Source: Naegleria gruberi
Lineage: Eukaryota
DNA length: 64,000 nt
Strand: one strand, 5' to 3'
Assembly (NCBI GenBank): GCA_000004985.1
Contig: GG738906.1
Shown piece by piece: positions 1,168 to 61,707 of the stretch (within the stretch, counting starts at the first letter, position 1; each line of letters begins with the position of its first letter). The position numbers and the translations under genes are program-made. The notes under the pieces were generated by a model that made no database searches, was not told the DNA's origin, and worked only from the letters and a program-made list of their open reading frames with translations.

Positions 1168-2340
1168 TTACATATAAAAGTGAGAAAAATCCTCATCGTC
1201 ATCATCTAAATCTCTTGGAACTCGGTGATGGTCTGGATTTGGTTGACCACCTCCTCTACCTTGACCTCCAAAAGGTGCATTAGGATAGATTGGATCAAAT
1301 CTAGCACCTGGAATAAAGCCTGGGTTAGGTCTTCTATTATTATTTGAACCTGGAAAGAATAATGGATTGTTTGGACCAACCTGGCTGCCTCCACCAAATG
1401 GAAAACCAGATCCCCTTCCTCCAAAAGGTTGTGGTAAATGACCCAAACCAGGATACAAATCTTCATCACCAATACGATAAGGTCTACCACCAATAGGTGG
1501 TTGAATATATCCTCCTCTTCTTGGAGGGCCAATTCGTAGTGGATCAAAATCGTCATCATCTTCATCATACATACTTCTACTTGGTGGAATGTATTGTCTT
1601 GGTTGACGATCTTCTAATAGAGATGAGGAAACGTTAGTCGTAGTTGCATTATTGGATGATTGTGTGGATGACATGCTAATTGTTTCAAATCCCTCTTTTG
1701 GAACCAGTTTGTTTTGAATTTGAGTTTTAAATTGATATTCCAAGTCTTGTAAATTCTTAAAAACAGAAATAAAATCAATATTATCGTTACTTTGGTTGAT
1801 AACTTCATTAAACTTTTCTCTGTCAATAAACTCAAAAAGATTATTAAACTCCAACTGATAGACTTGTTCTTCTTCTTGTTGTTTGGCATATTGTGACATG
1901 TTCAAGTTTGAATTCTCATTGATATCAATATTTGGGAAAAGTAAAATGGTTGAAAATACTAATAATTTAGTTTGTCCCATCATTAATACTTTTAGAGTAA
2001 AATTAAATGTTCTTTGTGTGTGTTTGTACTTGAGAGAGAACATTTCCACGTTTGAATCAAAGTTGTTCGGAGGAAGAATTTGTCCCTCTGGTAATTCTAC
2101 ACATTGATCAGTTTCATTCAATCCAACACATCTAAATCCATGTTTTAACATTAAAAAGTGTAATACTAATACAAGCCAAGTTTGAGGTTTTGTTTTTTTT
2201 AATTTGTTTTGTAATTCTATATTATTAGTTAGTTGTGGATCGGTTAAATATTCTAAAATATTTGATCGGATCAAAGAACTAGATGATGAAGAATTGTCTT
2301 CTCCGCTGCTGCTGGCGTGGTTATCTGATGATGAAGACAT
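1168..2340 (-). CDS. Proteasome inhibitor PI31-like protein
   Basis: The C-terminal Pro/Gly-rich tail RFDPIYPNAPFGG...QPNPDHHRVP...DDDDEDFSHFYM matches the PI31 C-terminal signature (RFDP..P..PNPDH..PP..DDMYL). The N-terminus is Ser-rich. Single exon. Confidence 0.6.
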   Translation of the reverse strand: MSSSSDNHASSSGEDNSSSSSSLIRSNILEYLTDPQLTNNIELQNKLKKTKPQTWLVLVLHFLMLKHGFRCVGLNETDQCVELPEGQILPPNNFDSNVEMFSLKYKHTQRTFNFTLKVLMMGQTKLLVFSTILLFPNIDINENSNLNMSQYAKQQEEEQVYQLEFNNLFEFIDREKFNEVINQSNDNIDFISVFKNLQDLEYQFKTQIQNKLVPKEGFETISMSSTQSSNNATTTNVSSSLLEDRQPRQYIPPSRSMYDEDDDDFDPLRIGPPRRGGYIQPPIGGRPYRIGDEDLYPGLGHLPQPFGGRGSGFPFGGGSQVGPNNPLFFPGSNNNRRPNPGFIPGARFDPIYPNAPFGGQGRGGGQPNPDHHRVPRDLDDDDEDFSHFYM

Positions 2341-2549
2341 TTTTTATTGTTTATTATTAGATTGATTTTTGTTCATTCCAGAAACTGATGGATGCGTTAT
2401 TTTAAAATTTAAAAAAAAAATCCCTTCTGTTTATTCAGGTTGAACAATAAAAAACTCTCTCCGAATTGACTCGAATGGACAAACAATAACATTGTAACAA
2501 TTCCAAATTATATCACATTCAACACATATGAAAATTTTTAATATTCATC

Positions 2550-4769
2550 ATGGCACGGTTACCAAACACTCCGATCATTGTTGATGAATTTAAATACATT
2601 CCCGGATGTTTCATTTATCTATTAACCCATCTTCATACGGATCACACTGGTGGTCTTACTCCAAGTTGGAATAATGGAATAATATTTTGTAGTGAAATAA
2701 CCAAAAGATTACTCTTGAAAAAGTTTCAATTACAAGAACCAGAGAGAATAATTGCTTTAGAGGAGGGACCAACCTATTACATTCCTCTTGTACCACCCAG
2801 TCCAATGCAGGATCACACAGACACGAATTTAAATATTCATCATGATGTTAATATTTGGAGGGATCCATCCTATTGGGTCAAGTTTAACAATAATCCTTCT
2901 TCCTCTCAAAACAATAGCAGTAACTTGTCACAATCAATGTCAGTTGGTATGAATCAAGCCTTGACTGTTTATGATAAGGATACATCTTATATGCAAGTCA
3001 ATATCATTGATGCTAATCACTGTCCAGGAAGTATTATGTTTTTATTGGAAGGCTATTTTGGAAATGTTTTATTTACAGGAGATTTCAGATATGATGCAAG
3101 AATTCTGCAAGCTCCTTGCTTTAGAGACAAGAAAATTGACCACCTCTACCTTGATGACACATTTCTGGATAAAATGTATGATTTTCCAACGAGACAAGAG
3201 GCTGGTAAACAAGTAATAAGTGTTATCAAGTCACTACCAGATACAACTCATATTCTGATTGCGGTTGACCATTTGGGTAAAGAGGAGTTAATGTTGGCTT
3301 TAGCAACTACTTTTCAAACTTTAATAGTTGTGCCCGAAGAAAGATATGAACTATTAGAATGTATGAATGATATTATCCCAATAGATTTATTTACCTGTGA
3401 TCCTAAACAAGGTAGAATTTTTGTAAAATCAAAGAAGGAAGTCAATATGCGGTCAATAATTGAGCACAAAAGAATTTTTGGAGCAACTACTGTTGGTATT
3501 ATTCCATCTGGATGGTCTTCTGCCCAACTCAAAGATCCAACCTCACAATTAATTTATAGAGTACCCTACTCACTCCATTCATCCTATTCGGAAATAATAG
3601 AATTTGTATCCACATTGAAGCCAAAAAATGTGTACAGTACTTCAAAAGATGAAAATTTAGAATTGAGAGATCAAGTTGGAAAATATTGTGATTATAATAC
3701 ACCCCTAAAACCTGTAATTGTTCCACGTTCTGTACTCTCACACATGGAAAGGTCATCCAATATGATTGATCATAAGAAAATTACAAGTGTTTCAAATATT
3801 TCCCCATCATCATCAATAACTAAAGTGTACAGAAAAAGAAAATCATACCCTCCTTCCCATAAGAAGTTTCTAAAAATTATTCCCCAAAATACACAAACCC
3901 AAAATACCAGTATTATTGACCTAACAGACACTGTGAATACATCCCAAATCAATTTAGAAGATACCCAAGATTTACTCTCCCATATGTACAATAGATCAGA
4001 AACAAGCTTTTCATTGCCATCCACCCCAAATAAGAAGAAGGAGTCCCAAAGAATTGTGGGATCATTAGAAGTTTTAGATGTTTTGGACAATTTTGTAAAT
4101 ATTTCTCCTATACCTAGTCCAAAAATTATTAAGCATTCCCCTCACAGAAAACAACTTGCCTCTAAACATTCAATAGAGCAAGTGTTGGTGGACAATAATG
4201 GAATACCAATTCTGGTACCAAAAGATACAAACTTGGAATCTGATGAAATATATAACTTATCACTTTCTCCCCACAGTGGGGATGAAAATGCTTTTGATGA
4301 AAGTGAGATTTTGAATAATATTGATTTAGAACAATCACCAGAGGAAAGTATTATTATTAAAACTGCTAACAATCAGCAGTTGCCATCAAAGAAAAGAAAG
4401 CATGTTGAAACAAGACAAATTTTAGAATTAAGCGATGATGACGAAATAGTACTCAAACCAGCAACCAACAAGACAACATCTCATTATGAATCCAATACAA
4501 AAAAGTTGAAACTTGCGACAAATCTTTCACAGATAGAATTCTCACTAGAGGCTAATCCTGTTGTTGCTCAAGACGAAATTGACAAGAACGAGCCCTATCC
4601 ACAAGGTTACTCACAAATTTCTTGGGATGATTCAGATGAAGATGTAAAATTAATACCACACCAGAAAAACAAAACAAGCCAAACACTCCATAAAACTACA
4701 AAACCAACCAAACAATCCAGTTCCCTCAGTTTGACAGACATTTTCTTTCCTAAAGCGACAAGGCATTAA
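2550..4769 (+). CDS. SNM1/Artemis (DCLRE1) family metallo-beta-lactamase/beta-CASP nuclease with a long low-complexity C-terminal tail
   Basis: Motifs LTHLHTDHTGGL (HxHxDH), DANHCPGS and PYSLHSSYSEI are diagnostic for SNM1/PSO2/Artemis. 739-aa single ORF. Confidence 0.75.
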   Translation: MARLPNTPIIVDEFKYIPGCFIYLLTHLHTDHTGGLTPSWNNGIIFCSEITKRLLLKKFQLQEPERIIALEEGPTYYIPLVPPSPMQDHTDTNLNIHHDVNIWRDPSYWVKFNNNPSSSQNNSSNLSQSMSVGMNQALTVYDKDTSYMQVNIIDANHCPGSIMFLLEGYFGNVLFTGDFRYDARILQAPCFRDKKIDHLYLDDTFLDKMYDFPTRQEAGKQVISVIKSLPDTTHILIAVDHLGKEELMLALATTFQTLIVVPEERYELLECMNDIIPIDLFTCDPKQGRIFVKSKKEVNMRSIIEHKRIFGATTVGIIPSGWSSAQLKDPTSQLIYRVPYSLHSSYSEIIEFVSTLKPKNVYSTSKDENLELRDQVGKYCDYNTPLKPVIVPRSVLSHMERSSNMIDHKKITSVSNISPSSSITKVYRKRKSYPPSHKKFLKIIPQNTQTQNTSIIDLTDTVNTSQINLEDTQDLLSHMYNRSETSFSLPSTPNKKKESQRIVGSLEVLDVLDNFVNISPIPSPKIIKHSPHRKQLASKHSIEQVLVDNNGIPILVPKDTNLESDEIYNLSLSPHSGDENAFDESEILNNIDLEQSPEESIIIKTANNQQLPSKKRKHVETRQILELSDDDEIVLKPATNKTTSHYESNTKKLKLATNLSQIEFSLEANPVVAQDEIDKNEPYPQGYSQISWDDSDEDVKLIPHQKNKTSQTLHKTTKPTKQSSSLSLTDIFFPKATRH

Positions 4770-4803
4770 TAAAATCTTTACTTATTAAAATATGGAAAAT
4801 GGT

Positions 4804-7800
4804 TTATAAATCTTCATTTAGATATGGATTCACAACGCTCTTTTTTTCATTCTTTTTAAAGGTCTCTGTTTGTTTAAATCTCCAATAGACTCCCATCAAC
4901 TGTTCGGTTGTTTCTACTTTGAGAATTGTGATAAGGTCTTCCAGTTCTTGTGCAGTTATAGCCTCATCTTGCTCCTTTCTAATGTGAAACATTCTCATCG
5001 TTTTCCTGCTGATAGAGAGAGGAAAAGGACTGTACTTTTTAAGGAATCTTTTGTAAATCTTCCTCACATGTTGGGATCTCTCAAACATACTGTGATGGAA
5101 ATTACCTTCAAAGGAATAAATGTCAATCAATTGACGATATAAATATACTAGTGGAAGGGTAAATTCTTTCATTGCATAAAATTCAAACAATGGACCCAAT
5201 ACCGGATCATTTACAACATCTAATAATTCACTGTCAGAAGTATTTTGTGTTTCAGATCCTCTAGTGCAACAAAATGTGTGTTTTCTAGCTGTCATACAAG
5301 CTACAAATCCTCCATAAACCAAGAGAATTAATAGCTTAACCATAAAAAGTAAAATAATTGGAGCAATTTCAAGCATGTGTATGTGAGCTTGTCTGCTGTA
5401 GAGTTGGAAAGCAAGAGAACCCTCATTAAAAGTATTGCTATACAGATTTGGATACATTACGTTCATTACATCATAACCTTCTGCTAGAACAAGTAAACTA
5501 GCCATGAACATATAAGCTATCCATTCAATTTTGAAAAGGAAAACATCTCCATTAAAAGTACCTTCAAATTTCAAAAAGTTGTCAGTCTTTACATCATTGA
5601 AATTTAACATTTTCTTCATGAATATTTCCATAAAAATAATAATAGAGAAGCTAACTATTACACTCAATGTAATTAAGCAAGCCCTTATTAAACTAAATAC
5701 TGTAAATACTAATTTAAAGTTAAGAACTGAAACTGAAGCCAGTACTAGTAATATGATATATGTAACCAGTTGGGCAGCATAAAGAGTCAAACATGGCATA
5801 ACTAAATAGGATCTGGAAGTGAATTTAACATATCTACGAATTGAATATTTTTCATCTTTCTCTTGATACTTTTTCATCAAGAATTGGAATCTTTCCTTGT
5901 GGTAGTATTGCCAAATATTCAACATGTAGAGAACTAGCATGGCACAATATAATGGATCGATAACAGTTCTCAAGGCTCCATCTATTGTATCCATGAAAGG
6001 TATTTCAACACCTGTCAAGAAAATATTCATAATCATTCCATCTCTAGTCAAATTGATAAGTGCTTCGAGTATCAGGACTAGAATTCCAAAAAATGGAATA
6101 AAACCTCTAAACTTTAGCGAAATATTGTGTGGTGTCCTTATACTAAGTAGAAAAATAGCTTGTCCAACAGAGAAAATTAAAATTAAAATACAGGATGTAA
6201 TATCTCCCCAAACCTTATTGGTAAAATCTTGGATAAGTTCAACATCTGATGTGTTTGCCTTCAATACAGCAAAAAGGGTGGTATGATTACAAGAGCAATA
6301 AATTCTATTTAGTCCAGGATTGGAATCATCAGTAATCAAACTATCCTTTGGCTTGGAATTACCGAGGAATGAATAAGATGCCACAGTGGTGCATCCCTCC
6401 TTTGACCATTCTTCTGTAGTTTCATTCCAAAAATGGCATCCACCCCCCATCCACAAGTAAGTAGGTAGGTAGACACTTTGATCAGCAAAGAATACCATCT
6501 CTATTGGTGACTTTAAATTTCTCAATTTCAATGATTGTTGATTGTAGAGTAATTCTACACTTATCATTACGTTTCCAAGTATTTTGGAATTGCCTTCTGT
6601 ATTTTTAAAAGTTACAATCTTGAACCCAACAAATTGATCTGTAATGTTCAAAGGAAGTGGAGATATGATGGATGCATCCAACGAGTTGGCCAATGTGCTT
6701 CTTTCTGTATTAGAATGGATAATCTCATCAGAATTCAACTCAATATCAGAAATGAATAGACTTTGTTGTCTAATTTCAGGTGGAAGTTGGATAAGAAGTA
6801 AATTATTGTTCACTTTCCATTCTCTAGTGTCGTTGGAGTAATCAACAGAAACAGAGGCCCCTTCTCCAAATCCAGCACCAATCAGACTACTCAACAAATC
6901 TCTCTTGTAGCTTATTTCTACGTTATTGTTTGTAATGGTTACAGCAGTTGAAGGCGCCGACTCCTCTAAAAGTCTAATAGACAACTGGTGAATCCATTTT
7001 TGGCAAAAACCAGCAAGAACTTGTGATTTAACAATTATTGTGTTGGCGTTTGCTGTTGACAGTAACGAGTCAAGAATAGTAAGGAAAGAATTAGAATATG
7101 TAGAGAATAGAGATGAAAATTCTACTTTAGGATTGTTGACTTCACTAGTTGGTCTCATATCTATGACATCTATTGTTCTGGTGATGAATAAATTTCGTTC
7201 CTTCAAAAAATTTACAAGCAATGGGTGTAAAAGAGAGTCAACTATGAGCGATATAGATCTAGATGATAGATGTGATGGTTTTTTGGTGAGAGAGGAAATT
7301 AGTTGAATTAAATTAATATCCATTCTGAATAGATCAAATAATGAAAGTGCAAAAGTGTTAGAACTATTAAGTGTTTTCAGTTGTTCTCGAGCCGAGATGG
7401 CTGCACTAGCTATTTGTTCTCTAATTATTCCTTCTTCATCAGAATTATTAAAGGCTGCATACTCATTTAGAGTAGTGCACAATTTGTCCAAGTCTAGATA
7501 AATATCTTGAATAATTTTTGGTTCGAAAACTGTTACATTATTTTTCTTCATTAAATCTGTGATGTTTGGCAAAATGTCAATGACTTGCTGTTGAATGTTT
7601 TGAATTTTGGATTTGGTCGCCTTGAGATAATTGTGATCAGTGCTAGTGTTGTTTAGTTTGATATTTCTAGTTCCAATCCAATATCTAAAGTTGTATGATT
7701 CCTTTGATGGATCATTAATTTGTAAAAATATATGGATATCAACTTGATTTGTGTGAGAGTAGGGTAACCAAGTTGTTAACTTGTTCATATGTGTGGAAGT

Positions 7801-9546
7801 GGTCAAGAGCTTCATTGTATCACCTTCAATAGAGTAATAAATCTCATATATTGCAGAGACGCTGGAAGAAGTAATACCAGGAAATTCAATAACAAATTTG
7901 TCTAATAATGGCCTATTAAATCCATCAAGTAATGGATAAATAGAAATTGAACTGCTATCTATAATACTATCTTGTTGCTTTGAAGCAACCTTTCTCCTAA
8001 ATGTTGAATTAACAATGTATATTTGATTGATAATAGCCTTAACGGAGAACTCATAAATATTAGGACTGGAAGAGTATGCCTTCTCATTGCTCAAAAGAGT
8101 TCTAGGTTCTAAATAGAGTACTGAATTAGAGGAAGTCTTTACAATGGTTGGTGTTTCTTGTTGATCTTCACGTCCTAAATAACTCACAGTCCACTCCCAT
8201 TTCAATGAGGTTACACCAGAAAGTAAAACTCCACCCGGAAAAATTTCACCACTCAATACTATTGCCTTTGTTGGATCCATGAATGTGGTGTCGATACTTG
8301 GGAAAATTCTAACTGCCCAATATTCATTGGCATTTAATGTTCGAAGTATGATAAAAGTGGTGTCAGATCTTGAACCAACACTATAATCAAGGCAAATCAC
8401 ATAGGTATTAAAATATTCAAGATTTTCTGTAGGAATATTATAATTTGATTCAAATGTGTTTACAGGTGTTTCAAATGTACAAGGTAGTAATACTGATGAG
8501 GAAATGTCAGATTTCAATTGAGATTTTCCACTCAGCTTGTAGGAATGGCCTTTTATGTAAAAGCATGACCAAATAAAAGACTCTTTAACAAAATCCACTA
8601 GTGGTAAGTTTTCAGGATCATAACTTGTTGAAAAAAGTTGTAAGGACCCATCTGATTGAATTATACTACCAAAATCAGATTCTTTTGGATATAAATTGGA
8701 ACGAGTATTATAAGAGTAAATTGGTAAATACTCTTCATACAATCCTCCATTGATTTGAGCTATAACATTGGATTTTGGCAATCTTTCTACACTAAATGAG
8801 AAGGAAATATACTCCATAGTAATGTTGCTGTTAGAGGAGTTGTATTCACCAATAAAATCAAAATTATAAGGGATGGAAGGCAGTAAATCATTAGTATTGA
8901 CTTTAAGTAAAAGTCCTCGAGTAATAGAATGCGTTAAAGGGTTGGATGTTAATAAACTCAATAAAGAATTGCCATTGCTAATCTTCCAAAAGTAGTTTCG
9001 TTCATTATTTGAAAATCCTGTAGCAGAAGCATTAAAAATTATCTCCTCATGGCTTGAAACTGAAACTAATTGTTGAGAGTGTATTGCCACATTGTTCATG
9101 TAAATTGTCAAATTGTTCAAGCTTGACTGTTCGTTTGCGTTCACAAAAAATCTGCCAGTTGTCACTGTATCCTCCAAAGCATGATAGTAATGGTGGTAAA
9201 TATTGGAAATGTTTTTTTGTTGAACACCAAAAGATTTGAAAAAGTAAGAATTCACTTGTATATCATGAATGTAAGAACTTTTAACTGCGTTTGATACACA
9301 AAGCATGGTTGATAATATCAAGACCAAATGAATCCAAGAAACAATCATGTGCCATATGCCCTTTCCGAATTGCATACTACTATGTATTCTTTTAGGAATT
9401 GATGAAGACATTTTTAAATTCGTAATATTTAATAGTGATTTCTTGTTAAATAATTCTTGTTTAGTCATTTGTTGTTGATGATGTGAGTTCGGAGGACTTT
9501 TTACATAGTAATTTTTTTGCAAATCTTTGGGTGTTTGGTTTTGCAT
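4804..9546 (-). CDS. Giant GPS/GAIN-domain 7-transmembrane receptor (adhesion-GPCR/latrophilin-like), 1580 aa, intronless
   Basis: An N-terminal hydrophobic signal/anchor is followed by an ~1000-aa N-glycosylation-rich ectodomain. A canonical GPS motif CHFWNETTEEWSKEGC...IYCSCNHTTLFAVL lies at aa ~1040-1095. Seven predicted TM helices and a ~150-aa cytoplasmic tail follow. Confidence 0.65.
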   Translation of the reverse strand: MQNQTPKDLQKNYYVKSPPNSHHQQQMTKQELFNKKSLLNITNLKMSSSIPKRIHSSMQFGKGIWHMIVSWIHLVLILSTMLCVSNAVKSSYIHDIQVNSYFFKSFGVQQKNISNIYHHYYHALEDTVTTGRFFVNANEQSSLNNLTIYMNNVAIHSQQLVSVSSHEEIIFNASATGFSNNERNYFWKISNGNSLLSLLTSNPLTHSITRGLLLKVNTNDLLPSIPYNFDFIGEYNSSNSNITMEYISFSFSVERLPKSNVIAQINGGLYEEYLPIYSYNTRSNLYPKESDFGSIIQSDGSLQLFSTSYDPENLPLVDFVKESFIWSCFYIKGHSYKLSGKSQLKSDISSSVLLPCTFETPVNTFESNYNIPTENLEYFNTYVICLDYSVGSRSDTTFIILRTLNANEYWAVRIFPSIDTTFMDPTKAIVLSGEIFPGGVLLSGVTSLKWEWTVSYLGREDQQETPTIVKTSSNSVLYLEPRTLLSNEKAYSSSPNIYEFSVKAIINQIYIVNSTFRRKVASKQQDSIIDSSSISIYPLLDGFNRPLLDKFVIEFPGITSSSVSAIYEIYYSIEGDTMKLLTTSTHMNKLTTWLPYSHTNQVDIHIFLQINDPSKESYNFRYWIGTRNIKLNNTSTDHNYLKATKSKIQNIQQQVIDILPNITDLMKKNNVTVFEPKIIQDIYLDLDKLCTTLNEYAAFNNSDEEGIIREQIASAAISAREQLKTLNSSNTFALSLFDLFRMDINLIQLISSLTKKPSHLSSRSISLIVDSLLHPLLVNFLKERNLFITRTIDVIDMRPTSEVNNPKVEFSSLFSTYSNSFLTILDSLLSTANANTIIVKSQVLAGFCQKWIHQLSIRLLEESAPSTAVTITNNNVEISYKRDLLSSLIGAGFGEGASVSVDYSNDTREWKVNNNLLLIQLPPEIRQQSLFISDIELNSDEIIHSNTERSTLANSLDASIISPLPLNITDQFVGFKIVTFKNTEGNSKILGNVMISVELLYNQQSLKLRNLKSPIEMVFFADQSVYLPTYLWMGGGCHFWNETTEEWSKEGCTTVASYSFLGNSKPKDSLITDDSNPGLNRIYCSCNHTTLFAVLKANTSDVELIQDFTNKVWGDITSCILILIFSVGQAIFLLSIRTPHNISLKFRGFIPFFGILVLILEALINLTRDGMIMNIFLTGVEIPFMDTIDGALRTVIDPLYCAMLVLYMLNIWQYYHKERFQFLMKKYQEKDEKYSIRRYVKFTSRSYLVMPCLTLYAAQLVTYIILLVLASVSVLNFKLVFTVFSLIRACLITLSVIVSFSIIIFMEIFMKKMLNFNDVKTDNFLKFEGTFNGDVFLFKIEWIAYMFMASLLVLAEGYDVMNVMYPNLYSNTFNEGSLAFQLYSRQAHIHMLEIAPIILLFMVKLLILLVYGGFVACMTARKHTFCCTRGSETQNTSDSELLDVVNDPVLGPLFEFYAMKEFTLPLVYLYRQLIDIYSFEGNFHHSMFERSQHVRKIYKRFLKKYSPFPLSISRKTMRMFHIRKEQDEAITAQELEDLITILKVETTEQLMGVYWRFKQTETFKKNEKKSVVNPYLNEDL
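6262..6430 (-). other. GPS (GPCR proteolysis site) motif within the receptor gene
   Basis: Reverse-complement translation of 6259-6300 gives YCSCNHTTLFAVLK. Upstream are CxxW...W..GC cysteines in the spacing expected for a GAIN/GPS domain. Confidence 0.6.
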
Positions 9547-11268
9547 TTTTTTTAAATTTATTATTGATTTTGAATGGGCTCTTTACAGTGGTAATTGATG
9601 ATTTTTTTATCAATTAACAACTGGAGCTTAGAATTATCTAGAGTTTCTTTGTTTTCCTCTCCACCTTTGGAATTTTCCTCTATAATGTGTTTGAATTGAT
9701 TGTGATCTACTCCAAAACTTTTCCATTGCTCAATATCAGCCAGGAATACTTTTTTGCAAGGTTGTTTGGTTGTTTTGGCCGCTCCAGCAAACAACCAATT
9801 TGGTTGTCCATAACTTGGGATTTAACTTTTTTGAGTGACACACTACCAAAGTTCCACTATCAATGTCCATAAGCTCCTTTCTTTGGATGGGGGCTGATGT
9901 ACAACTTTGGAGGACATAGCTCAATATCCTTACCATTTTCTTTCTTACTGTATCGGTGCAATGTTATTGATCTTGGTTGATGGCTGCCACCAACAAAAAA
10001 TAACTCTAAAGCCCTTCCCTTTGTACTGTTATCCTCTGCTAGAAATTATCTTCCTAAATCTCAAAATCCAATACTTGAAATGTTCAAATTGCTTTCTCCA
10101 AGAAACCATTGAATCACATTGTTATTCCATCTCCAGTCCAGAACTTTTGCAAACAGGTATCAAGAGTGCAAAATCTGAGAAATCATACCAAACACTCTAT
10201 AATGATTTGAATAATCTTCACAAGTCCTGCTTTGCTCACTTGTCCCTCAATGATATTAATCACCAATTTTTGAAAAACTGCTGGTATAGAAGCGGCAACA
10301 AAGGCTATAGAATTAACTGTTTGTTCCCTTAAAAAAGAGCTTACTCTGTCCCTATGTAGGAAACGGCATTTGTTGAAAAGTTTTGCATATCTATTTTTCC
10401 ATTATTAAATGTGTAAGAAAGAAGTCTTGGAATATTATATAATACATCCTGTTTCTCTTTTCAATTCTTTCACTGTTAAGGAGTCCTTTTGTGTTTTTAT
10501 CCAAATATGTGACATGAAAGCATCGTCAGAAAATGATGGAACAATATATCTATACTGGTTCTTGGAAGCATCTCTAAAAGCTGTAGACGGCAAGGTTGAG
10601 TGAGCCTGCGAAGAAAGGGCAGCAAAAAAGATGCTTAATATTAATATATAAAAAAAATATATTGCAACTAAATACTAACAGATTCGTAAATGTATCCAAT
10701 ACTTCACCATTGTGTGTTTGACTATTTGGCTTCCATTGGCAAGCTTAGGTTCGGGCGGTTGTAGTACCCAATCTTTGAAAGAAAAATCTAATCATATCGA
10801 GAGTAAAGTGCCAATGTTTTCAAAAGTGATATTAAATGCTTTCATAAATTTCAAATTTAAGGGACATATTGATGAAATAAAGCCTTTGGAGAAAATAGAA
10901 AAATTGAAGTCTGTAACCATTTCAAGACTAAATTCGAACCATCAAAGTCAATTTGAATTATTATTCTACAGAACTTCTTCTTCTTTCATGCCGAACATTA
11001 TGGTCAATCCACTCTTGTTCTTATCAAAGTGGCAAGATATTTTTGACTGGCAAAAGTTGTTTGACCAATACGTATTTTGTTTTGATACATATTCAGAGTT
11101 GTCACTGATTTCTTACTATTATTTTTACAACATGTAACACTATTGCATCTTGAACGGGTGTTTTTTAACAATAGGTTTTAAGTGTTGTTTCTTGAAGAAC
11201 ATACTGCTAAGAATATTTTCTCATTAAATTGAAATTTCTCAAAAAAACAAAAAAACAACCCATTCAAA

Positions 11269-23272: not shown

Positions 23273-26254
23273 TTACTTTCTTTTGGTATTTATTTTGGGA
23301 AGCCTAAAATTTTCACCTGAGTCAGTACTTCTAGAGGAGATGGATCTCAAATCCATATCACTTTCAATTTGGGCCGTGTGTGTGACCAGATTTTGTTTGG
23401 TATTGGTTTTTGGTTTTGAAGGTGTTGGAGCGCTGCTTCCTGAGTTCTTTTTAAACATTTCCAACCTTTTCATTGGGTCTTTTCTTTCTTCTTTCAATTT
23501 TTTTTGCATTTTCAACTTGTTCATTCTCTTGTTTTTGGCGAACAAATCTTTAGCTGTTTCAATATTCTTAAAGTTCCAATTATTTTTTAAGGCTTCAAGA
23601 TTTGGGTTCGTTCCATTTTGGCTATCAGAAATGGAATTTTTCAAAATACTATTTGAACTGATTCTAATGGAGTCATCTACATCCTCGTCTTCAACATTTT
23701 CTGAGGTATTGATTGTTGATGTATTCACCTCGTCATCCTCATTAGATATCCATTTCTGATTTTTGGAAAGAGTTGAACTTGATGGTTGAGTAGGGAAAAA
23801 GTGTTCCTTGATATTTTCATCACCTCCATGACTTGTTTTGGTATTTACATCATAATAGTACACTTCGAATTTTCTATTCTTTCTTTTTTCTGGAATTTTT
23901 ACATCTATTAAATCAGTATCCACACCTGTATATTCCAAATCGTCAACTGCATTTTCCAACTCAAATATTTCATCAGCTTCGAATTGTCTAGCCCTTTTTA
24001 AAATAGTTCTAACTCTGTATCCTTTCCAAACAGATTGAATCTTGGTTGCAGCTAGGTGTCTCGTATGAAGAGCCTTAAGAATCCAAGGGAGGTTCTTTTT
24101 TCTGGAAATGTAGCCCTTCCACACCTTTTGAATTTTAACCGCTGCCTCATTCTTAAGTTGATCGTTGTGTTTTCTTTTTGCTACTCGCCAGAATCTGAAC
24201 CATCTCTGGATTAGACATACCGAGTGTATTTTGTTAACCTTTTCCTGGTATTCAGTATTTTGACTGAAATGGTTTTGGTGTTTTTTAGGATTAAAGTTCA
24301 AGTGCTCCTCAAAGTGCTTTGATTTTTGTTCTGACTTTTGCTCATACTGGGATAAACGGGTGTCCAATCTCTTTGAGAAACGTTGCTGAACCTTTTGAAA
24401 GCTCCTCTCATCAAATCTCTCAGCACTAAGGCATTGATGGTAATTATTGAATTGAGATCGCTCAATAACTTGTTTGGAACACATATAATAGTAGGTGGTT
24501 TTTGTATTCCACTCTGTTATTGGAAGGGCTTGTAAACTCCTTTGGGACTTGTCCAAGGTGATGGCATCTCTCATAAATTTATATGAATTTTCTCTCAATT
24601 GATTTGCCTCAATTGACGGAACGCAGATTTTTAGTGAATGATTGATAAATGACACCAAATGGCCCACCAATCTTGGAGAATAGTGAACAAGATGAGAAAC
24701 TACACTAAATCTTGAATTCATGCTTACAGGCTCACCATCAAGATTGTTCAAATTTGGGAGAATTCCAATCAATAATTCTCTATATAAAACACCCTTACAT
24801 ATTGGGTTGTCATTGATTTTAACTTCCTCAATGTTTCTACAATATTTTAGGTGTAATATCTCATCTATTGATTGTATATTGTTGAAAGATAAATTAACAT
24901 TCCTCAACATGATACAATTTGAGAGTGGTGATATGTGTTCAATCTTGTTATTGCTCAAGTTCAAATATTGCAAAAGAGGGGAAAATAAAAATTGGTTAGG
25001 AAGCTGAACAATTTGGTTGGTATTCAAATACAAACTCTTTAAAAGTACTTGATGAAAGGATGGAACTTGCATTATTTTGTTTTGGTACAGTATTAAATCC
25101 TCTAACAATAGGTTATACCTCAAGAAATTGTGAAGAGATTCTAATTCGTTGTATCCACAATCCAAGTATTGTAAATTTGAAAATCCATCCAACACTCTTA
25201 AATCTGATATTTGATTAATATCCACTCGTAAATATTGTAAATTTCTATTATTTTGTAATCCACTCAAGTCTTGAATTTTGTTATTACACATATTAATACC
25301 TCTTAATTGGCAAGTATTTCTTAAAGAACCAAGAGAAGTAATATTATTTCCTATGGCATACAATTCTTTGAGTTTTGAAGCTATTTCTCTGTTCATTTGA
25401 ATTGAGGTTAACCTGTTATCATTTAGTGATAAGCACTCAAGTTGATTCAAATTTTTAAGCGTACCCAAAGATTGAAGAACGTTGGTATCAAGAAAAAGTG
25501 CTCTCAAATTATAGAATGGCTCGAAAACTCTTTCTTTGATTGAAGATATTTCTTCTCCTCTAATATTGATCAATACGACTGTGTTGTCATCCTTTTCAAA
25601 AGGCATGTTGTTCTCCAGTTTTTCTTCATCAAGAATTGAAAAAGGCTTTGAAAGAGATGAAGAGGAACTGTCTTTCACAAGTGTTGGTGTTGGGAGTGGG
25701 GGAGGTTTTGAGAAATTTTTGATTGTTGCTCTCCACCTTTCAAAGTCCTGGAATAGAGTCCAACATTTTGACTTTCTAGAATTCTCTACTGACTCTAATA
25801 TACATTTGATAATGTACAGTCTTTTGATAGATTTTAAACGATCTCTTTCCCTCTTCTTTTCTTCTTCAATCCTCTTTTGTTCCATATCTCTTTTGAGCTT
25901 TTCCTCCTCTTGTTGTTTCCTTCTCTTATCCTCTTCTATTCTCTTAATTTCCTGCTCTTTTCTTATTCTTTCTTCTTCTTCTTTTTTTTTCTTTTCCACT
26001 TCCTTGAGTTTTTTGTCATTGTCAATTTTTTTCTTTCTTTGAAGAGCTTTTTCTGTTTTTAATGCTTCGATTTGTTTCCTTTCTTGTTCTTCCTTGAGTC
26101 TTTGCTCTTCTTGTTTCTTGAGCATTAACTTTTCTAGGATCTCTTGTTTTTCAATTTCCTGCTGCAGTTCTTCTTCTTTTTTTTTCTGGGCTGCTACAAT
26201 TTGTCTCTCTATTTCAGCTTGCTGTTTCTTGAATAAGATTTCTTGTTGCTCCAA
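23273..26254 (-). CDS. Leucine-rich-repeat + IQ-motif protein (CEP97/LRRIQ-like) with an N-terminal K/E-rich coiled coil
   Basis: About 12 SDS22-type LRRs plus an LRRcap, then three IQ motifs (IQRWFRFWR, IQKVWKGYISRKK, IQSVWKGYRVR). The reading frame remains open upstream to 26569, so the real N-terminus lies upstream. Confidence 0.6.
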   Translation of the reverse strand: MEQQEILFKKQQAEIERQIVAAQKKKEEELQQEIEKQEILEKLMLKKQEEQRLKEEQERKQIEALKTEKALQRKKKIDNDKKLKEVEKKKKEEEERIRKEQEIKRIEEDKRRKQQEEEKLKRDMEQKRIEEEKKRERDRLKSIKRLYIIKCILESVENSRKSKCWTLFQDFERWRATIKNFSKPPPLPTPTLVKDSSSSSLSKPFSILDEEKLENNMPFEKDDNTVVLINIRGEEISSIKERVFEPFYNLRALFLDTNVLQSLGTLKNLNQLECLSLNDNRLTSIQMNREIASKLKELYAIGNNITSLGSLRNTCQLRGINMCNNKIQDLSGLQNNRNLQYLRVDINQISDLRVLDGFSNLQYLDCGYNELESLHNFLRYNLLLEDLILYQNKIMQVPSFHQVLLKSLYLNTNQIVQLPNQFLFSPLLQYLNLSNNKIEHISPLSNCIMLRNVNLSFNNIQSIDEILHLKYCRNIEEVKINDNPICKGVLYRELLIGILPNLNNLDGEPVSMNSRFSVVSHLVHYSPRLVGHLVSFINHSLKICVPSIEANQLRENSYKFMRDAITLDKSQRSLQALPITEWNTKTTYYYMCSKQVIERSQFNNYHQCLSAERFDERSFQKVQQRFSKRLDTRLSQYEQKSEQKSKHFEEHLNFNPKKHQNHFSQNTEYQEKVNKIHSVCLIQRWFRFWRVAKRKHNDQLKNEAAVKIQKVWKGYISRKKNLPWILKALHTRHLAATKIQSVWKGYRVRTILKRARQFEADEIFELENAVDDLEYTGVDTDLIDVKIPEKRKNRKFEVYYYDVNTKTSHGGDENIKEHFFPTQPSSSTLSKNQKWISNEDDEVNTSTINTSENVEDEDVDDSIRISSNSILKNSISDSQNGTNPNLEALKNNWNFKNIETAKDLFAKNKRMNKLKMQKKLKEERKDPMKRLEMFKKNSGSSAPTPSKPKTNTKQNLVTHTAQIESDMDLRSISSRSTDSGENFRLPKINTKRK

Positions 26255-27245: not shown

Positions 27246-30200
27246 TCAATATTTGCTAGAATAATTTGTAAATGGCTCTACAATCTCATATTCCTCTTCA
27301 AAGGTCTTTTCTTCTGTTGGTTGTGTGGCCGAGTCATTATTGATAATAGTAAGAGCCTTTTCGATTTCCTTAAACCAGTCCAAGCATTCTTCTTTGGTCT
27401 CACAAATAAAGCCAAGCGGAATTCGTTTAGATGGGGTATTAATGATGAGTGTAAACTGGCGTTCTCCTTTATACTTATCATTAATACTCCATTTTTCTTT
27501 TTCTTCCTTATCTGCTATACTTTGGTCTATTTCAATTGGAGGAAAATCTCTTCCAGGAGATAATTGGTCCATTTCGAACGCAGCTTCATCAGTACCCATT
27601 ACAACAGAGGCACCCTTCAAAGGATAGAGGTTGAATCTGGAGACTAGTTTCTGTACAAAGTTTGTTTCCTTAATTATAACAACGTCACTCATTAAATAAA
27701 CTTGGACATAAAGTTCTGTAAATCTAAGTTCTAAAAGGTCTTCAATTGTTTTGTTTTTTACAGCATCCCAATAAGGTGTAACTTGTCCTCTTATTTCAGA
27801 TATAGTTCCCTTATTATACAGCTTGTTCATTACATCTTTCTTAAAGTTGTTGATGCCCTTGTTTTGACCTAGAATCAATCTACCCTCTTTCAAAAAGAAT
27901 CTACCTGGCTTGAGTAAGGATTCGTTCATCTTTAGTTTTTTTTCAATTTCCAATACCTTATATTTGTTATTAATTCTATAAATGTATTCCTCTTGCTCTT
28001 GTACTATATGTCTAAGTTCTCTTACAACAATTCTAAGGTTTTTAAAATCTGGATGAGAATCTGGTGTATATCTCAATATCTTTTGTAAAAACTTTAGGTA
28101 AATGAATAATCTAGTTACAGGAAGAAGAAGGTATGCATCATAGATATGTCCACTACAAATTGGTAACCTCTTTCTTAGTTTGATATACTTGTCAAATTCT
28201 TCATTTGTTTTTCTCAGTTTGTTTAATACTGCTGCTGCATTTTCGTAAACACTTGGATACTTAACATATAATTGTCTAAATTCTTCCAAACGAGTTTCGA
28301 AAACTTTTGAAATTTCTATGGAATCCTCATTTTTCATAGATCGTGCTTGTGTCAGTGGTAAAAGCTTTGATTTGAGGTCAATATATAATCCTCTAGCATT
28401 TCCTATTATGTCTAGAATAACTGAAGGAAGTACACAATCTCTCTCTGAATTTGAAATATTGAATTCATTTCTATTCTTACAAATATCAAGTAAAGGTTCG
28501 AAAAGTATATCATTAAATACATTCATATGGCTTATATATTCTGTTTCACTATTTAATAATTGCAATAGTAAAACTTGTCGGTTAGGTATGTTCTTTTGAT
28601 ATTGTTCATTGATTTTCTTAATTTCTGGGCTATCTTCTTCGCCTAAACTCTCACTAACACCTCCTCCAAATAGATAATTGGTAGCTTTTACAGACTTTCT
28701 TCTATTTTTTGATTTAATACGCAAATCTTCCTCAGTGTTCAATTTGGAAAGTATAAGGGAAGTTGTATAGTAGAATAAATCATTATCATTGTACTTGAAA
28801 TATTTCAACTTCTTAAGTTGTCTTATATCGTCAGGAACCTCTCTAAGTTCATTTCCTGAAATATTCAGATCCGTTAACGTATTTTTAAGTAGTGATATAT
28901 CATTAGGGAAAATAAGAAGTGAATTTCCACTGAGGTCCAATGTTAAAATATTTGGAAGCTTGAGAATACATCCCGGTACATATTCAAAATTATTGTTACT
29001 TAAATCTAATTCTTTTAACTTTTTCATTTCACAAAAGTTTTCAGGTAATTCATAAAGATAATTATATGGTAAAAATAAATAAGTCAATGACTTTAAAGTA
29101 GTTGCAAACCAGGTAGGTATGGAAGATATGTAGTTATTCGAAATATCCAGAAGTGTAATATTTCCTCCTTCCACGAGGGATTGTATAGGAACTTGTGAGA
29201 GTATGTTGTATCGAAAGTAAACAGCTTGTGTTTTAGAACTTATTGGGGTTGGATTGTGATTTTGTCTGAATGCTCCTTCCCTATCAGTTATTCCATCAAA
29301 TATTTGTTTAAGATTTTTGTGAACAGCAATAGGTTGGTCAATAGAGTGAGACTCAGCTGCCAGCTGTTTGTAATCTAAATCTCCAGAACTTGGTCTCCTA
29401 GATTCCTTATTTGCCTCCTCATTTGCAGTCTCAGATTCCCCATAGTTTACTATCTGTGTTTCTGTGTCAGAATCAGATTCACTATCAGAATAATTTATAC
29501 TATCAGTTGCTGTGCTATCAAAGTCATCTACATTTGCTGTCAAGTTGCCATAACTGATGGATAATCTTTTCCAAGTATTTTTACCTCCATCTATTAAATC
29601 ATTGTCAGAATTTTTAAATTCTGATTTTTCAGTCTTTGCCACTTCTGGAATCGTATCTAATTTTTCTTCTTCTACTGGTTGCTTCAATTCTTTATACATT
29701 TCTCTTAATTCTTTAGTATCCGTAATATCATACTTATTTTTGTTAATATACATTCTTTGCTTTTTTTGTTCCTTCTTATTTGTTTTATATTGTTTTAATG
29801 CTCTTGGTACAGTTGATGTGTTGATTGAGTTTACAAATTCGTATGGTCTGGGCACTGAATAATGATCATCATCAGTTTGGTTGACTGAATCAGTGGTATC
29901 AAAATCTTTCCTGATTGATCTTCTCGGATTACCAAAAGGACCGTTCCTCATTTCTAATGTTTCAAAATCCAATTCATCTATTTGTGTACTAATTTCAAAT
30001 CTTACTTTTTTTCTGGAAAGATTGGATGAGCTGGTATTATTTTTGAGCATGTTGAAATTATAGGTTTGTTGTGATTTGGATGCTTGTGTTTTAGAAGGGT
30101 GAGATATGTTTGTGTTGTAAGACTCATCTAAAAGTTGTACCAAATTTAAAAATGTAATAATGTTCGTTTTAAATGTAATGACTATCGATTGAAGAGCGTA

Positions 30201-30464
30201 TTGAAGTGGCTTGATGAGTGTTGGACATATTATGAGTATTGCTGCAATTATTAAACAAAGAATAACGATATCCGAAGCTATTCGCCCAAAAAATGTTAAT
30301 ATCAAGTACGGAAAGTTTGAAGTATTTGGTGTTGTGGTATTCGCTGAAGTGATTATTTCGGAAATGTTCTCAGAGAGAACCGAAATTACTTGTGTCAGTT
30401 TTTCTTGATGATCATCAAGAGGTGTTGATGAAGTGATATTAAAATAGTTGGCTTGACCATCCAT
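27246..30464 (-). CDS. LRR-containing RhoGEF (Dbl-homology/PH) protein, 1072 aa
   Basis: The central region has LRRs (LDLSGNSL, LNISGNELREVP). The C-terminal part has a DH domain signature (…YLLLPVTRLFIYLKFLQKILRYTP…) followed by a PH-like region. There is an N-terminal hydrophobic segment. Confidence 0.55.
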   Translation of the reverse strand: MDGQANYFNITSSTPLDDHQEKLTQVISVLSENISEIITSANTTTPNTSNFPYLILTFFGRIASDIVILCLIIAAILIICPTLIKPLQYALQSIVITFKTNIITFLNLVQLLDESYNTNISHPSKTQASKSQQTYNFNMLKNNTSSSNLSRKKVRFEISTQIDELDFETLEMRNGPFGNPRRSIRKDFDTTDSVNQTDDDHYSVPRPYEFVNSINTSTVPRALKQYKTNKKEQKKQRMYINKNKYDITDTKELREMYKELKQPVEEEKLDTIPEVAKTEKSEFKNSDNDLIDGGKNTWKRLSISYGNLTANVDDFDSTATDSINYSDSESDSDTETQIVNYGESETANEEANKESRRPSSGDLDYKQLAAESHSIDQPIAVHKNLKQIFDGITDREGAFRQNHNPTPISSKTQAVYFRYNILSQVPIQSLVEGGNITLLDISNNYISSIPTWFATTLKSLTYLFLPYNYLYELPENFCEMKKLKELDLSNNNFEYVPGCILKLPNILTLDLSGNSLLIFPNDISLLKNTLTDLNISGNELREVPDDIRQLKKLKYFKYNDNDLFYYTTSLILSKLNTEEDLRIKSKNRRKSVKATNYLFGGGVSESLGEEDSPEIKKINEQYQKNIPNRQVLLLQLLNSETEYISHMNVFNDILFEPLLDICKNRNEFNISNSERDCVLPSVILDIIGNARGLYIDLKSKLLPLTQARSMKNEDSIEISKVFETRLEEFRQLYVKYPSVYENAAAVLNKLRKTNEEFDKYIKLRKRLPICSGHIYDAYLLLPVTRLFIYLKFLQKILRYTPDSHPDFKNLRIVVRELRHIVQEQEEYIYRINNKYKVLEIEKKLKMNESLLKPGRFFLKEGRLILGQNKGINNFKKDVMNKLYNKGTISEIRGQVTPYWDAVKNKTIEDLLELRFTELYVQVYLMSDVVIIKETNFVQKLVSRFNLYPLKGASVVMGTDEAAFEMDQLSPGRDFPPIEIDQSIADKEEKEKWSINDKYKGERQFTLIINTPSKRIPLGFICETKEECLDWFKEIEKALTIINNDSATQPTEEKTFEEEYEIVEPFTNYSSKY

Positions 30465-59002: not shown

Positions 59003-61707
59003 ATGGGTGTATTGTGTCTTTTTGTTCAAGAACAAAGAGAACCTAAATTAAATCTCTTCCTTCATTCGTAAGTTTGTGATCATAGTATTTTAATGACACA
59101 AAAAGTCATCACGAAATTTCCCAAAACCAAGCTATAACAATATCAGATCATTTCGCAAAACTTATCTCTACTAATACATCAGCCAGAGGTGAAGTGTTTA
59201 TTGCTAAAAAATTCAGAGCTGTTTTTATTCTATTGAATGAAGTTTATGTAGTGACTGTTTGTCATAAATCCGACTATCCATATGATGCACTCAGATGTGC
59301 AAACAATGCCAAGTTATTAATGTTTGAGGCTTGTAAAGGAGTGGAAGTGACTGTCATTAATTTGTATAAAAAGTTTGGACAAATAATGTTAGCCCTTGAG
59401 GAATTAATCAATGAAACAAATACATTTAAACCACCATCAACAAGTTTGGAGATGGTTGGAAAATCAAAATTAGGAGAAGCACATCATGTCTCTGCTCAGT
59501 ACAACGGAACTTCACATATTCAAACTAGTAAGACTCTCAATTCTGGTTCTTCTTTTATAGGTTCTCAAGATACACCAAAAAAAGCAAGAAGAGGCACCAT
59601 TAAACAAATGGAAAAGCTTATATCATATACTGCTGATGAAATGTGGAAGGAAAAGCAAAAGCAAATGGAATCACATCAAAAGAGATTCCAAATTTTAGAT
59701 AAATTCCAAGCACCAATTAGTAATGAACAAATTGAAGACAAGACAGTGACAGTGACAGATGATATGCTTCCAGATCCTACTGACATTATCAATTTTCAAT
59801 TTGGTTTTGATTTTACTGCACCAGATGAAGAAGATGCTCTTCCAAGTTTCAACCACAAAAGAGCCAAGTCAACCAACATTTCTACAGGATCTGAGAGTAA
59901 TGGTATTTCAAGTTTTAGAAAACGACAAATGGAACACATTGCTCTTGGACAACAAATGTTTCCTCTTAGTGAAGAGGAATGGCACTCCCTTAAAGTACCA
60001 TCTCTTCCTGAAAATTTAAAACCTGTATTTATTCCTCCACCAACAACCAATCTTCCTCCTCTTCCACAATCATTCGTTACTTTACAACCTCAAAAATTAC
60101 CACCAAAGGTTGGTACTGCATTTGATCGTGGTGATAGCAAACTTATCAGCTTTGAGCCTTTTGATTTACATGGAAGTACTACAAGTAGCAAAATGGAAGG
60201 TGAGGACACTGAAGTCGACATGTCGGATGAAGATTACACTTTCAGATCAGACAAACAAGACAAATTAAGTGACTCCATCTATGACTATAATCCACCAAAA
60301 GTTTCCACACAAAATTCTTTATCAAATATTCTTTTACCAACAAATTTACCTCCTCTACCTTCTACTTTGATAACCAACCAAGGAAGTGTGGCAAATAACA
60401 CTGGCAATACCACATCAACAAACTTTTTGGATGCTTTCCTCGGACCAACCGATCCAATTCCAACAAAAACTCAAAACTCATTATTGTTGGTTGACAGTTT
60501 AATGACCCCATCATTGGATCTAAATTCAACCCTTGTTCAACCTTCCGTCATATCAGGTGCTAATCTTGGTAATAACAATTTTATCCCACCAATACCTACA
60601 ACAATCACTACTAACACCACACCAAATGGTAAAAATGTTAGTAGTAATGAAAATATTCCTACTGTTCCACCATTGAATACTACTATCAAACCAGTTTCCA
60701 CAAATATTACAACTCCTAAAATTACTCCAAATGAGCCTACCAATTTCCTCACAGAAATTCAAAACAAGCAACTCAATCCAATTGCTCAAAATTCTCCATC
60801 CACCCCAATGTTTGATCCTAATGAACTCAAGAAATCCATAGAACAATCTCAACAAAAGAGAGCAGCTGTATTGCCATTCAAAGTACTTGTCACAGAAACT
60901 GTTGTCAAGAACATGTCAGGTCTCACTGAGGAGGAGTACAACTTTATGGGTCAAATTGAACTAATTCTATTCAATCATGAAAGTTATCGTTCTTCGGATT
61001 CGTACAAGTTTATTCTGTCTCTTATTAATGATCAATTTAACAATTCAGAAAACTTTACCAAAATTGCTAAAATTGTTTGTAATCCAAAAATTGCTAATGA
61101 ATTGAGCAATAGTGGTGATGTAACAAGTCATGCTTTTGAATGTAATGTAACTGGTCAAGAAATTAACCCAAAGTCTCAAAATGCAGTCATTCTCAAATAC
61201 AAACTAAAGGAGCATTTGAATCTAGTTCCATTCAAATTAAGGCCTCTCTACTTTATGGCAACCAAGGATGGACAAACAATGCTAAATATTTCAATCGATT
61301 ATATTGTAAATCCTGCTACCCCCCTGGACAAGCTCTCTTTCCTTATTCGCATTTGTACATCAAGTGAACAAATTACGCTAAAATCTCAATCTAAACCTGA
61401 AGGTCGTTGGAATGCTACTAGACAAGAACTATTAGTGAATGTGGATCAACCAGGACCAAAAGGAAGTGTTATTGCTAAATTTTTACTCAATCGTGAAGTG
61501 AAAGATATTGCTGAACTGCAAACAGAATTCTTATGTAAATTTAATGCAAAAGGTCTCCTTGCTGGATTTACTGTGGAAGGAGGTGAGAGCAAGAGAAGTG
61601 CCCACAATCAAGTATTTTTGGGTGGTTGTGAATATTCAATCACCACACCATCTTGGAGGTATAAACTTACCTCGGAGAACTTGAACCCACAATTTGCCAA
61701 CAAGTAA
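59003..61707 (+). CDS. Mu-homology-domain protein with an adaptin-mu/delta-COP-like N-terminal longin domain and a ~400-aa disordered linker; probably 2 exons
   Basis: The N-terminus (FRAVFILLNEVYVVTVCHK...LLMFEACKGVEVTVINLYKKFGQIMLALEELINE) resembles the mu/sigma-adaptin longin fold. The C-terminal ~280 aa (VLPFKVLVTETVVKNMSGLTEEEYNFMGQIELILF...) resembles an MHD. A putative 5' exon at 59003-59067 (MGVLCLFVQEQREPKLNLFLH) joins through a 119-nt GTAAGT...CAG intron (59068-59186) in phase. Confidence 0.45.

Follow-up and report, generated by a model that had tools for sequence, protein, structure and literature searches.

A gene of Naegleria gruberi on contig GG738906.1 (assembly GCA_000004985.1) encodes a predicted receptor in which a large ectodomain ending in a GPS motif, a bundle of seven transmembrane (7TM) helices and a cytoplasmic RGS-fold domain follow one another in a single chain. 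The gene lies on the minus strand at positions 4804–9546 of a 64,000-nucleotide stretch of this contig, hereafter called the window. Because a C-terminal RGS-fold domain is present, the protein is assigned to the "7TM RGS" class, and sequence comparison makes it a member of a heterolobosean class of GPS-7TM-RGS receptors. Both this architecture and the class assignment are very probably correct. The public model of the gene, which lacks the last four transmembrane (TM) helices and the RGS domain, is almost certainly wrong. The helix bundle belongs to no recognised 7TM family, and the RGS tail, although more strongly conserved than the rest of the protein, has lost the residues used for canonical contacts with G-alpha.

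Gene model

The window has a GC content of about 33% along its entire length. An AT-rich protist genome had already been proposed in a preliminary description of this DNA, made from its letters alone, and so had an intronless reading frame for a protein of 1580 amino acids (aa). Both statements are correct. Positions 4804–9546 of the minus strand are spanned by one uninterrupted open reading frame (ORF), which is 1580 codons long and ends in a stop. The translation start is uncertain, and M1, M46 and M58 are each possible. M58 stands immediately upstream of a classical signal peptide, and M46 is the start used by the public model.

The database protein that is 100% identical to this ORF, and that identifies the source as N. 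gruberi, is XP_002671368.1 (NAEGRDRAFT_73637, UniProt D2VX67); it is 1228 aa long and annotated as a "predicted protein". It begins at M46 and tracks the ORF until residue 1260, where a 74-nucleotide segment bounded by GT and AG (5693–5766, minus strand) is spliced out. Removal of this segment shifts the frame and leads to a stop 13 codons further on, and the resulting protein is without TM4–TM7 and the RGS domain. If this model were correct, the gene would encode a truncated protein with three or four TM helices, or would be decaying. The GT..AG borders of the annotated segment fit such a reading, but three observations speak against it. The segment encodes residues of TM4 that are kept in N. 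lovaniensis, in a metagenomic homolog and in Willaertia. The 320 codons downstream of it contain no stop and are constrained, with a proportion of non-synonymous differences (pN) of 0.12–0.18 against a saturated proportion of synonymous differences (pS) of about 0.8. Finally, the metagenomic homolog is encoded by one unbroken ORF of 9138 nucleotides. A truncated or decaying gene is therefore highly improbable, and the 74-nucleotide segment is most likely coding.

Homologs and selective constraint

When 1.84 billion representative sequences were searched exhaustively with phmmer, only six matched, all of them heterolobosean or unassigned. Besides the public model itself (1228 aa), the relatives comprise two long homologs, a fragment and two distant paralogs. 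The long homologs are P0002 from N. lovaniensis (3094 aa, 63% identity) and P0003 from a metagenome contig (3045 aa, 57% identity; the protein of the unbroken ORF described above). The fragment, P0004, is from Willaertia magna. The paralogs, P0005 from N. gruberi (XP_002671458.1) and P0006 from N. lovaniensis, both pass the Pfam cutoffs for GPS and RGS. A protein search based on a word index did not recover the N. lovaniensis protein, although this is 63% identical and part of the collection searched, and the family profile gave no match there, probably because the composition of these proteins swamps its list of 8000 candidates; its negatives are unreliable for proteins of AT-rich protists.

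The two long homologs are colinear with the N. gruberi protein up to a common C-terminus (...NPYLNEDL). The paralog P0005 is aligned by phmmer from the GPS through the end of the RGS tail, and the homology of the 7TM region to the two GPS- and RGS-bearing paralogs is found at E=1e-7. The paralog branch extends to N. fowleri, where P0007 is a relative with GPS and RGS matches in Pfam, and where a protein 81% identical to P0006 occurs.

Conservation rises along the chain. Identity to the N. lovaniensis homolog is 43% in the membrane-distal ectodomain (37% to the metagenomic homolog), 44% in the helical region that follows it, 63% in the region equivalent to GAIN subdomain B, 73% in the 7TM bundle and 83% in the tail. 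Over the protein, pN drops from 0.46 to a minimum of 0.116 in the tail, while pS stays at about 0.8 throughout, so that non-synonymous divergence is well under the saturated synonymous divergence in each region. Saturation of the synonymous sites makes a dN/dS ratio unreportable, and the comparison is expressed as pN against pS instead.

The RGS-fold tail

The domain that places the protein in its class was overlooked in the preliminary description. It begins about 20 aa past TM7, covers aa ~1440–1565 (4852–5229, minus strand) and is recognised by Pfam, by a family profile and by Foldseek. The isolated tail matches the Pfam RGS family (PF00615) with 18.8 bits over positions 5–114 of the 117 in the model. 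The curated cutoff of 23.9 bits is exceeded by the homologs P0003, P0005 and P0006, which score 24.4, 36.1 and 29.7 bits. The family profile matches solved structures of RGS10 (E=1.3e-5), RGS12, RGS14 and RGS6 at values of 1e-5 to 3e-4, and also RGS7 and RGS2. Only this profile was effective; phmmer searches of the PDB with the whole protein and with the tail alone gave nothing meaningful.

Structures were predicted with AlphaFold. From the single sequence of aa 641–1580 the predicted local distance difference test (pLDDT) was 36 and the model was unusable; from six sequences the model is usable only in the RGS tail and in some of the helical region. The tail is its best-predicted part (pLDDT 66–79). 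In the Foldseek comparison with the PDB, the top 27 matches are nearly all members of the RGS family, most of them at probability 0.98–1.00. The TM-score normalised to the target reaches 0.75 with a root-mean-square deviation of about 3 Å, and the best matches are RGS8, RGS17, RGS16, RGS18, RGS1 and RGS4. The rgRGS domain of PDZ-RhoGEF and GRK1 appear at ranks 23 and 26.

The residues important for catalysis were mapped by alignment to human RGS4, with the numbering confirmed against residues given in the literature. N88, N128 and D163 of RGS4 are three critical G-alpha contacts (PMC8252600). In N. gruberi, the equivalents of E87/N88 are P/L, that of N128 is S and that of D163 is G. The two long homologs have P/L at E87/N88 and G at D163, and at N128 one has P and the other S. 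The Willaertia homolog carries Q-Y at E87-N88 and keeps N at N128 and D at D163, and the two paralogs retain E/N, N and D. The equivalents of R167 and F168 are conserved.

These data bear on whether the tail acts as a canonical GTPase-activating protein (GAP). If so, the receptor would work like AtRGS1 or Nf 7TM RGS2-4 of N. fowleri, with input from the ectodomain relieving a brake on a (self-activating) G-alpha. Such a role is possible but rather doubtful. It is favoured by an architecture and a genus shared with proteins for whose RGS domains GAP activity has been measured, by the RGS fold with its R167 and F168 equivalents, by strong purifying selection on the tail and by the retention of N128 and D163 equivalents in the Willaertia homolog. 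It is opposed by the replacement of the E87/N88 dyad, N128 and D163 together in the three long Naegleria-lineage sequences. As reported in PMC10794492 (citing Srinivasa 1998), the double substitution E87A/N88A ends the GAP activity of RGS4, and the same source describes that EN>AA exchanges in fungal 7TM-RGS receptors largely abolish the complementation of deletion mutants.

A non-canonical role of the tail is preferred because no other part of the protein is as conserved, even though the contact residues are replaced. The tail would then bind G-alpha or another partner in a non-canonical manner, with weak or absent GAP catalysis. Judged from the residues, the chance of this is even or slightly better, which makes it somewhat likelier than canonical GAP action.

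Just past TM7, a Cys-Cys pair occurs at aa 1426–1427 (KHTFCCTRG; window ~5266–5271, minus strand). It is kept in the close homologs (HTLCC, HTICCC, YISCC) and not in the paralogs. It may be a palmitoylation site that anchors the start of the RGS tail.

The GPS motif and the GAIN domain

The GPS motif named in the preliminary description stands above the Pfam cutoff. The GPS core, aa 1036–1096 (6259–6441, minus strand), matches the Pfam GPS family (PF01825) with 27 bits within the whole protein and 30.1 bits as an isolated segment, against a curated cutoff of 22.5. Every canonical position is present: C1037, W1040, W1047, C1052, C1084, C1086 and H1088-T1089/T1090, where the stroke marks the putative scissile bond, followed by LFAVL. 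In addition, the profile built from the GPS-7TM-tail part of the family matches solved GAIN domains from adhesion G-protein-coupled receptors (GPCRs), namely ADGRG3 at E=3e-6 and ADGRG1, ADGRL3 and ADGRG6 at values up to 2e-3. On the evidence of these matches, the motif is real and homologous to the GPS of solved adhesion-GPCR GAIN domains.

The canonical cleavage motif is given as H-X-S/T in PMC13062082, and the consensus of the tethered agonist is TxFAVLM (PMC12716839). In the N. gruberi protein, the putative autoproteolysis site H1088-T1089/T1090 (6277–6285, minus strand), which is followed by the Stachel-like strand TLFAVLK, lies 22 aa upstream of TM1. The strand agrees with the consensus at 6/7 positions, and the residue at position -1 of the putative site is Thr, where Leu is usual.

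A GAIN domain is defined by two parts in this order: subdomain A, which is helical and has 6 helices, and subdomain B, a beta-sandwich with 13 strands (Arac et al. 2012, PMC3321182). The order predicted for the N. gruberi protein is 8 helices at aa 642–861 and then strands up to TLFAV. The all-helical region, aa 641–865 (6952–7626, minus strand), is taken from the secondary structure of the six-sequence AlphaFold model, with pLDDT of 56–74 over aa ~670–780; on the basis of this model it could be the equivalent of GAIN subdomain A. The beta-rich region that ends in the GPS, aa 866–1096 (6259–6951, minus strand), is the candidate equivalent of subdomain B, as indicated by the Pfam GPS match, the family profile and the predicted strands. 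Its pLDDT in the same model is below 50, and a Foldseek search with the model gave no GAIN match, the GAIN part being of low confidence.

The seven-helix bundle

Downstream of the GPS, the hydropathy profile shows exactly seven hydrophobic segments, as the preliminary description had stated, and the six-sequence AlphaFold model places seven long helices at the same positions, at low confidence. The bundle covers aa ~1112–1419 (5290–6213, minus strand). An N-out/C-in topology is predicted because Lys and Arg are unevenly distributed: the segments predicted to be cytoplasmic carry 18 of them, and those predicted to be extracellular carry 4. The glycosylatable ectodomain would accordingly face the outside of the cell.

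The bundle has no detectable similarity to a recognised 7TM family. The Pfam 7tm_2 family (PF00002), whose profile had been suggested as a check, and every other Pfam 7TM family gave no match when values up to E=1 were allowed for the whole protein and up to E=10 for the isolated segment. When the family profile was compared with the PDB at E<=10, no class-B receptor was matched beyond TM1. In the positive control, a single 7TM sequence from latrophilin was enough to recover all class-B receptors of the PDB at E<=1e-10, as far as those for calcitonin, CRF, secretin, VIP and GLP-1. A reference profile of adhesion-GPCR 7TM domains was made from five sequences recovered from the PDB alignments. 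The hhalign comparison of a six-member Naegleria/Willaertia 7TM profile with this reference gave a score of 13.9 and a probability of 0.1%, and reversed-sequence controls of the same comparison (n=3) scored at least as high (14.6–19.4). These 7TM profiles are shallow, with an effective number of sequences (Neff) of about 2.2.

A true class B2 adhesion GPCR, in which the Stachel exposed by autoproteolysis activates the 7TM domain and the latter acts as a G-protein exchange factor, is improbable in view of these results. Several features favour it. The GPS is homologous to that of GAIN domains, its HMMER alignment extends past the cleavage site into TM1, the H-X-T triad is present, TLFAVLK resembles TxFAVLM, the seven TM helices have a spacing typical of adhesion GPCRs, and profiles as shallow as those used leave room for a very remote relationship. 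Against it, TM2–TM7 carry no 7tm_2 or class-B signal by any of the three comparisons (Pfam, profile against the PDB with its positive control, and hhalign with its reversed controls), and the RGS-fold tail is foreign to the adhesion-GPCR architecture. The adhesion-GPCR architecture of the preliminary description thus holds for the homologous GPS placed 22 aa before the first of seven helices and finds no support for a class-B bundle. Since the bundle cannot be shown to fall within the adhesion/secretin class, the protein should not be classified among the adhesion GPCRs. Sequence comparison points instead to a GPS/GAIN element of adhesion-GPCR type on a different, orphan seven-helix scaffold.

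A further reading is that of a polycystin-1/REJ-type GPS protein, which would make it a channel-associated receptor rather than a 7TM one. PKD1-family proteins also bear GPS/GAIN (PMC3321182), and the ectodomain of the N. gruberi protein is large and beta-rich. However, the TM segments number seven and not eleven, the C-terminus carries an RGS fold, and the polycystin, REJ, PLAT and PKD-channel families were matched neither by Pfam at lenient thresholds nor by the family profile against the PDB at E<=10. As far as sequence methods allow, a polycystin/REJ identity is refuted by the TM count, the Pfam and PDB negatives and the RGS tail, and its probability is minimal. Thus neither of the outcomes that the preliminary description had named as fatal to its reading, a helix count other than seven or a polycystin/REJ-type match, was found.

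The ectodomain

The whole ectodomain measures about 1000 aa. It is preceded by a signal peptide or signal anchor at aa 58–90 (9277–9375, minus strand), MQFGKGIWHMIVSWIHLVLILSTMLCVSNA, with a hydropathy peak of 2.13 and an inferred cleavage position directly before VKS; this segment is homologous to aa 170–201 of the N. lovaniensis protein. The membrane-distal part, aa 91–640 (7627–9276, minus strand), is an orphan region poor in cysteine that is conserved in the two long homologs from about aa 167. The ectodomain has no match in Pfam, and its profile has none in the PDB, in line with the absence of known adhesion modules proposed earlier.

Two other properties ascribed to the ectodomain did not withstand analysis. 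The NxS/T sequons, described as many, number 17 against 17.1 ± 3.5 expected from 2000 composition-matched shuffles and are thus at the level set by composition. The suggested novel repeats are absent by self-BLAST, and all segment-against-segment hhalign probabilities are at or below 1.7%. Units resembling the beta-sandwiches of REJ/PKD proteins, for which LxWxWTV and IYEFSV motifs were considered, were rejected, being unsupported by self-BLAST, by segment-wise hhalign and by the comparison of the ectodomain profile with the PDB.

The two long homologs carry about 1400 additional ectodomain residues right after the homologous signal peptide (aa 202–1636 in the N. lovaniensis protein), with weak RCC1-like and EGF-like matches. 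The corresponding site in N. gruberi lies at ~9048–9283 of the window (minus strand), and the metagenomic counterpart of the gene lies within positions 1943–11080 of its contig, L001. The additional part is not encoded elsewhere in the window according to tblastn. The N. gruberi receptor is probably a shortened form, through a true deletion; a collapse of the assembly is the less likely explanation.

Genomic context

No paralog of the receptor is found in the window, and its neighbours are ordinary housekeeping and signalling genes. An SNM1/DRMBL gene (2550–4769, plus strand) is convergent with the receptor gene and lies 34 nucleotides from its 3' end; it was not found on the metagenomic contig L001. 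A gene for a PI31 proteasome regulator is near the receptor both in the window (1168–2340, minus strand) and on the metagenomic contig (L001 454–1602), with 54% protein identity, and synteny with the metagenomic homolog is restricted to this gene. Further away, two adjacent long ORFs on the minus strand encode proteins with leucine-rich repeats, one of 1072 aa with a RhoGEF domain (27246–30464) and one of 993 aa with IQ motifs (23273–26254). Two plus-strand ORFs of 810 aa (46424–48856) and 837 aa (59194–61707), with TTG and GTG starts, gave no Pfam match at E<=0.001.

Proposed mechanism

In the mechanism proposed, a ligand, a contact or a force acting on the ectodomain, perhaps together with autoproteolysis at H1088-T1089/T1090, would alter the state or the location of the 7TM bundle. 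The changed bundle would in turn alter the engagement of the tethered RGS-fold domain with a heterotrimeric G-alpha subunit at the membrane. A logic of this kind has been put forward for AtRGS1 of plants and for the 7TM RGS proteins of N. fowleri. With the contact residues replaced, the tail might serve as a scaffold tethered to the membrane or as a module that sequesters its partner, and could be compared with RH domains such as those of GRKs or RGS-RhoGEFs. Taken as a whole, a GAIN/GPS-Stachel module wired to a non-class-B 7TM bundle and signalling via a non-GAP RGS tail, repurposed as a docking module for G-alpha or another partner, is a tentative and rather unlikely combination, its parts being judged separately above.

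Several points weigh against this picture. The gene is known from sequence comparison and predicted models alone. The mean pLDDT of the six-sequence model is 46, and the model is poor outside the RGS tail, so that the GAIN and 7TM folds are predictions. The 18.8 bits of the N. gruberi tail are below the Pfam RGS cutoff. Impairment of GAP activity is deduced from residue equivalence, and some active RGS proteins deviate at the same positions: Ser occurs naturally at the N128 position in the GAIP/RGSZ group, and Asn at the D163 position in RGS2. A substitution on its own is thus tolerated, and the argument for impairment consequently rests on their combination with the loss of E87/N88. Finally, the TxFAVL strand lies buried within the GAIN fold, and its conservation may therefore reflect packing of this fold rather than agonist function.

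Relation to known systems

The closest known system is that of N. fowleri, in which 28 "7TM RGS" proteins have been described, several of which carry GPS motifs and EGF or lectin ectodomains (Bosch et al. 2022, J Biol Chem 298:102167, PMC9283941). GAP activity was measured for three of the RGS domains in isolation, those of Nf 7TM RGS2-4 (PMC9283941). The N. gruberi protein belongs to the same genus and has the same order of parts, from the ectodomain through the GPS and 7TM bundle to the RGS domain, and its long homologs bear EGF-like sequence as Nf 7TM RGS2-4 do. It differs in a shortened ectodomain without a recognisable module and, within its homolog group, in the lack of the canonical G-alpha contact residues. 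Since the C-terminal RGS domain places the protein in this described class (PMC9283941), its novelty is lower than the preliminary description assumed. The complex ectodomain-GPS-7TM-RGS order is already described for N. fowleri; the corrected model and the degenerate RGS domain are particular to the N. gruberi gene. In the literature, no paper was found that names the locus or its accessions, or that pairs Naegleria with "GAIN domain".

With class B2 adhesion GPCRs such as ADGRG3, ADGRG1 and ADGRL3, the protein shares the homologous GPS with its Cys/Trp pattern and H-X-T triad, a TxFAVL strand about 20 aa before TM1, a large and variable ectodomain and seven TM helices. Unlike in adhesion GPCRs, the Naegleria bundle has no detectable class-B similarity, an HRM is lacking, an RGS-fold tail is joined to TM7, and the GAIN fold past the GPS strands is only predicted.

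Seven helices with a cytoplasmic RGS domain are also found in AtRGS1 and other plant 7TM-RGS proteins, in those of Trichomonas, chytrids, filastereans and ichthyosporeans, and in fungal class VI GPCRs (GprK/GprR). The logic of an extracellular cue that modulates a tethered G-alpha regulator is proposed for the AtRGS1 type as well. To our knowledge, the AtRGS1-type and fungal class VI proteins have short N-termini without GPS/GAIN. In addition, the E-N dyad is conserved and functionally required in these proteins, whereas it is P-L in N. gruberi. The occurrence of 7TM-RGS proteins in plants, many bikonts, chytrids, filastereans and ichthyosporeans, as well as the loss of GAP activity in some RGS domains that serve as scaffolds, has been documented (de Mendoza et al., PMC3971589). 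The RH domains of GRKs and the rgRGS domains of RGS-RhoGEFs, which lack canonical GAP function, likewise combine an RGS fold with G-alpha contact residues that have diverged. Canonical RGS domains of the R4, RZ, R7 and R12 groups rank above RH domains in the Foldseek search.

Implications

A new kind of system is not established by these results, the architecture having been described for N. fowleri in 2022. For N. gruberi itself, the public model conceals the 7TM-RGS nature of NAEGRDRAFT_73637, and surveys of GPCRs and RGS proteins based on the predicted proteome will have missed or misclassified this receptor.

For the evolution of the architecture, the linkage of GAIN and 7TM domains has been proposed to be of stem-holozoan origin and restricted to holozoan adhesion GPCRs (PMC12716839). 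The N. gruberi gene is a further clear case of a non-holozoan GPS directly ahead of a seven-helix bundle and, as such, a counter-example to a linkage confined to Holozoa. Because the 7TM part is not detectably of class B, the comparison favours independent assembly of the GPS and the seven helices over shared ancestry with adhesion GPCRs.

For the family, an RGS domain that is strongly conserved and yet catalytically degenerate offers a natural test of whether GAP chemistry is dispensable for 7TM-RGS receptors. If the proposed reading is true, control of a seven-helix bundle by a tethered peptide and dependent on cleavage would have arisen, or would have been recruited, outside Holozoa and independently of adhesion GPCRs.

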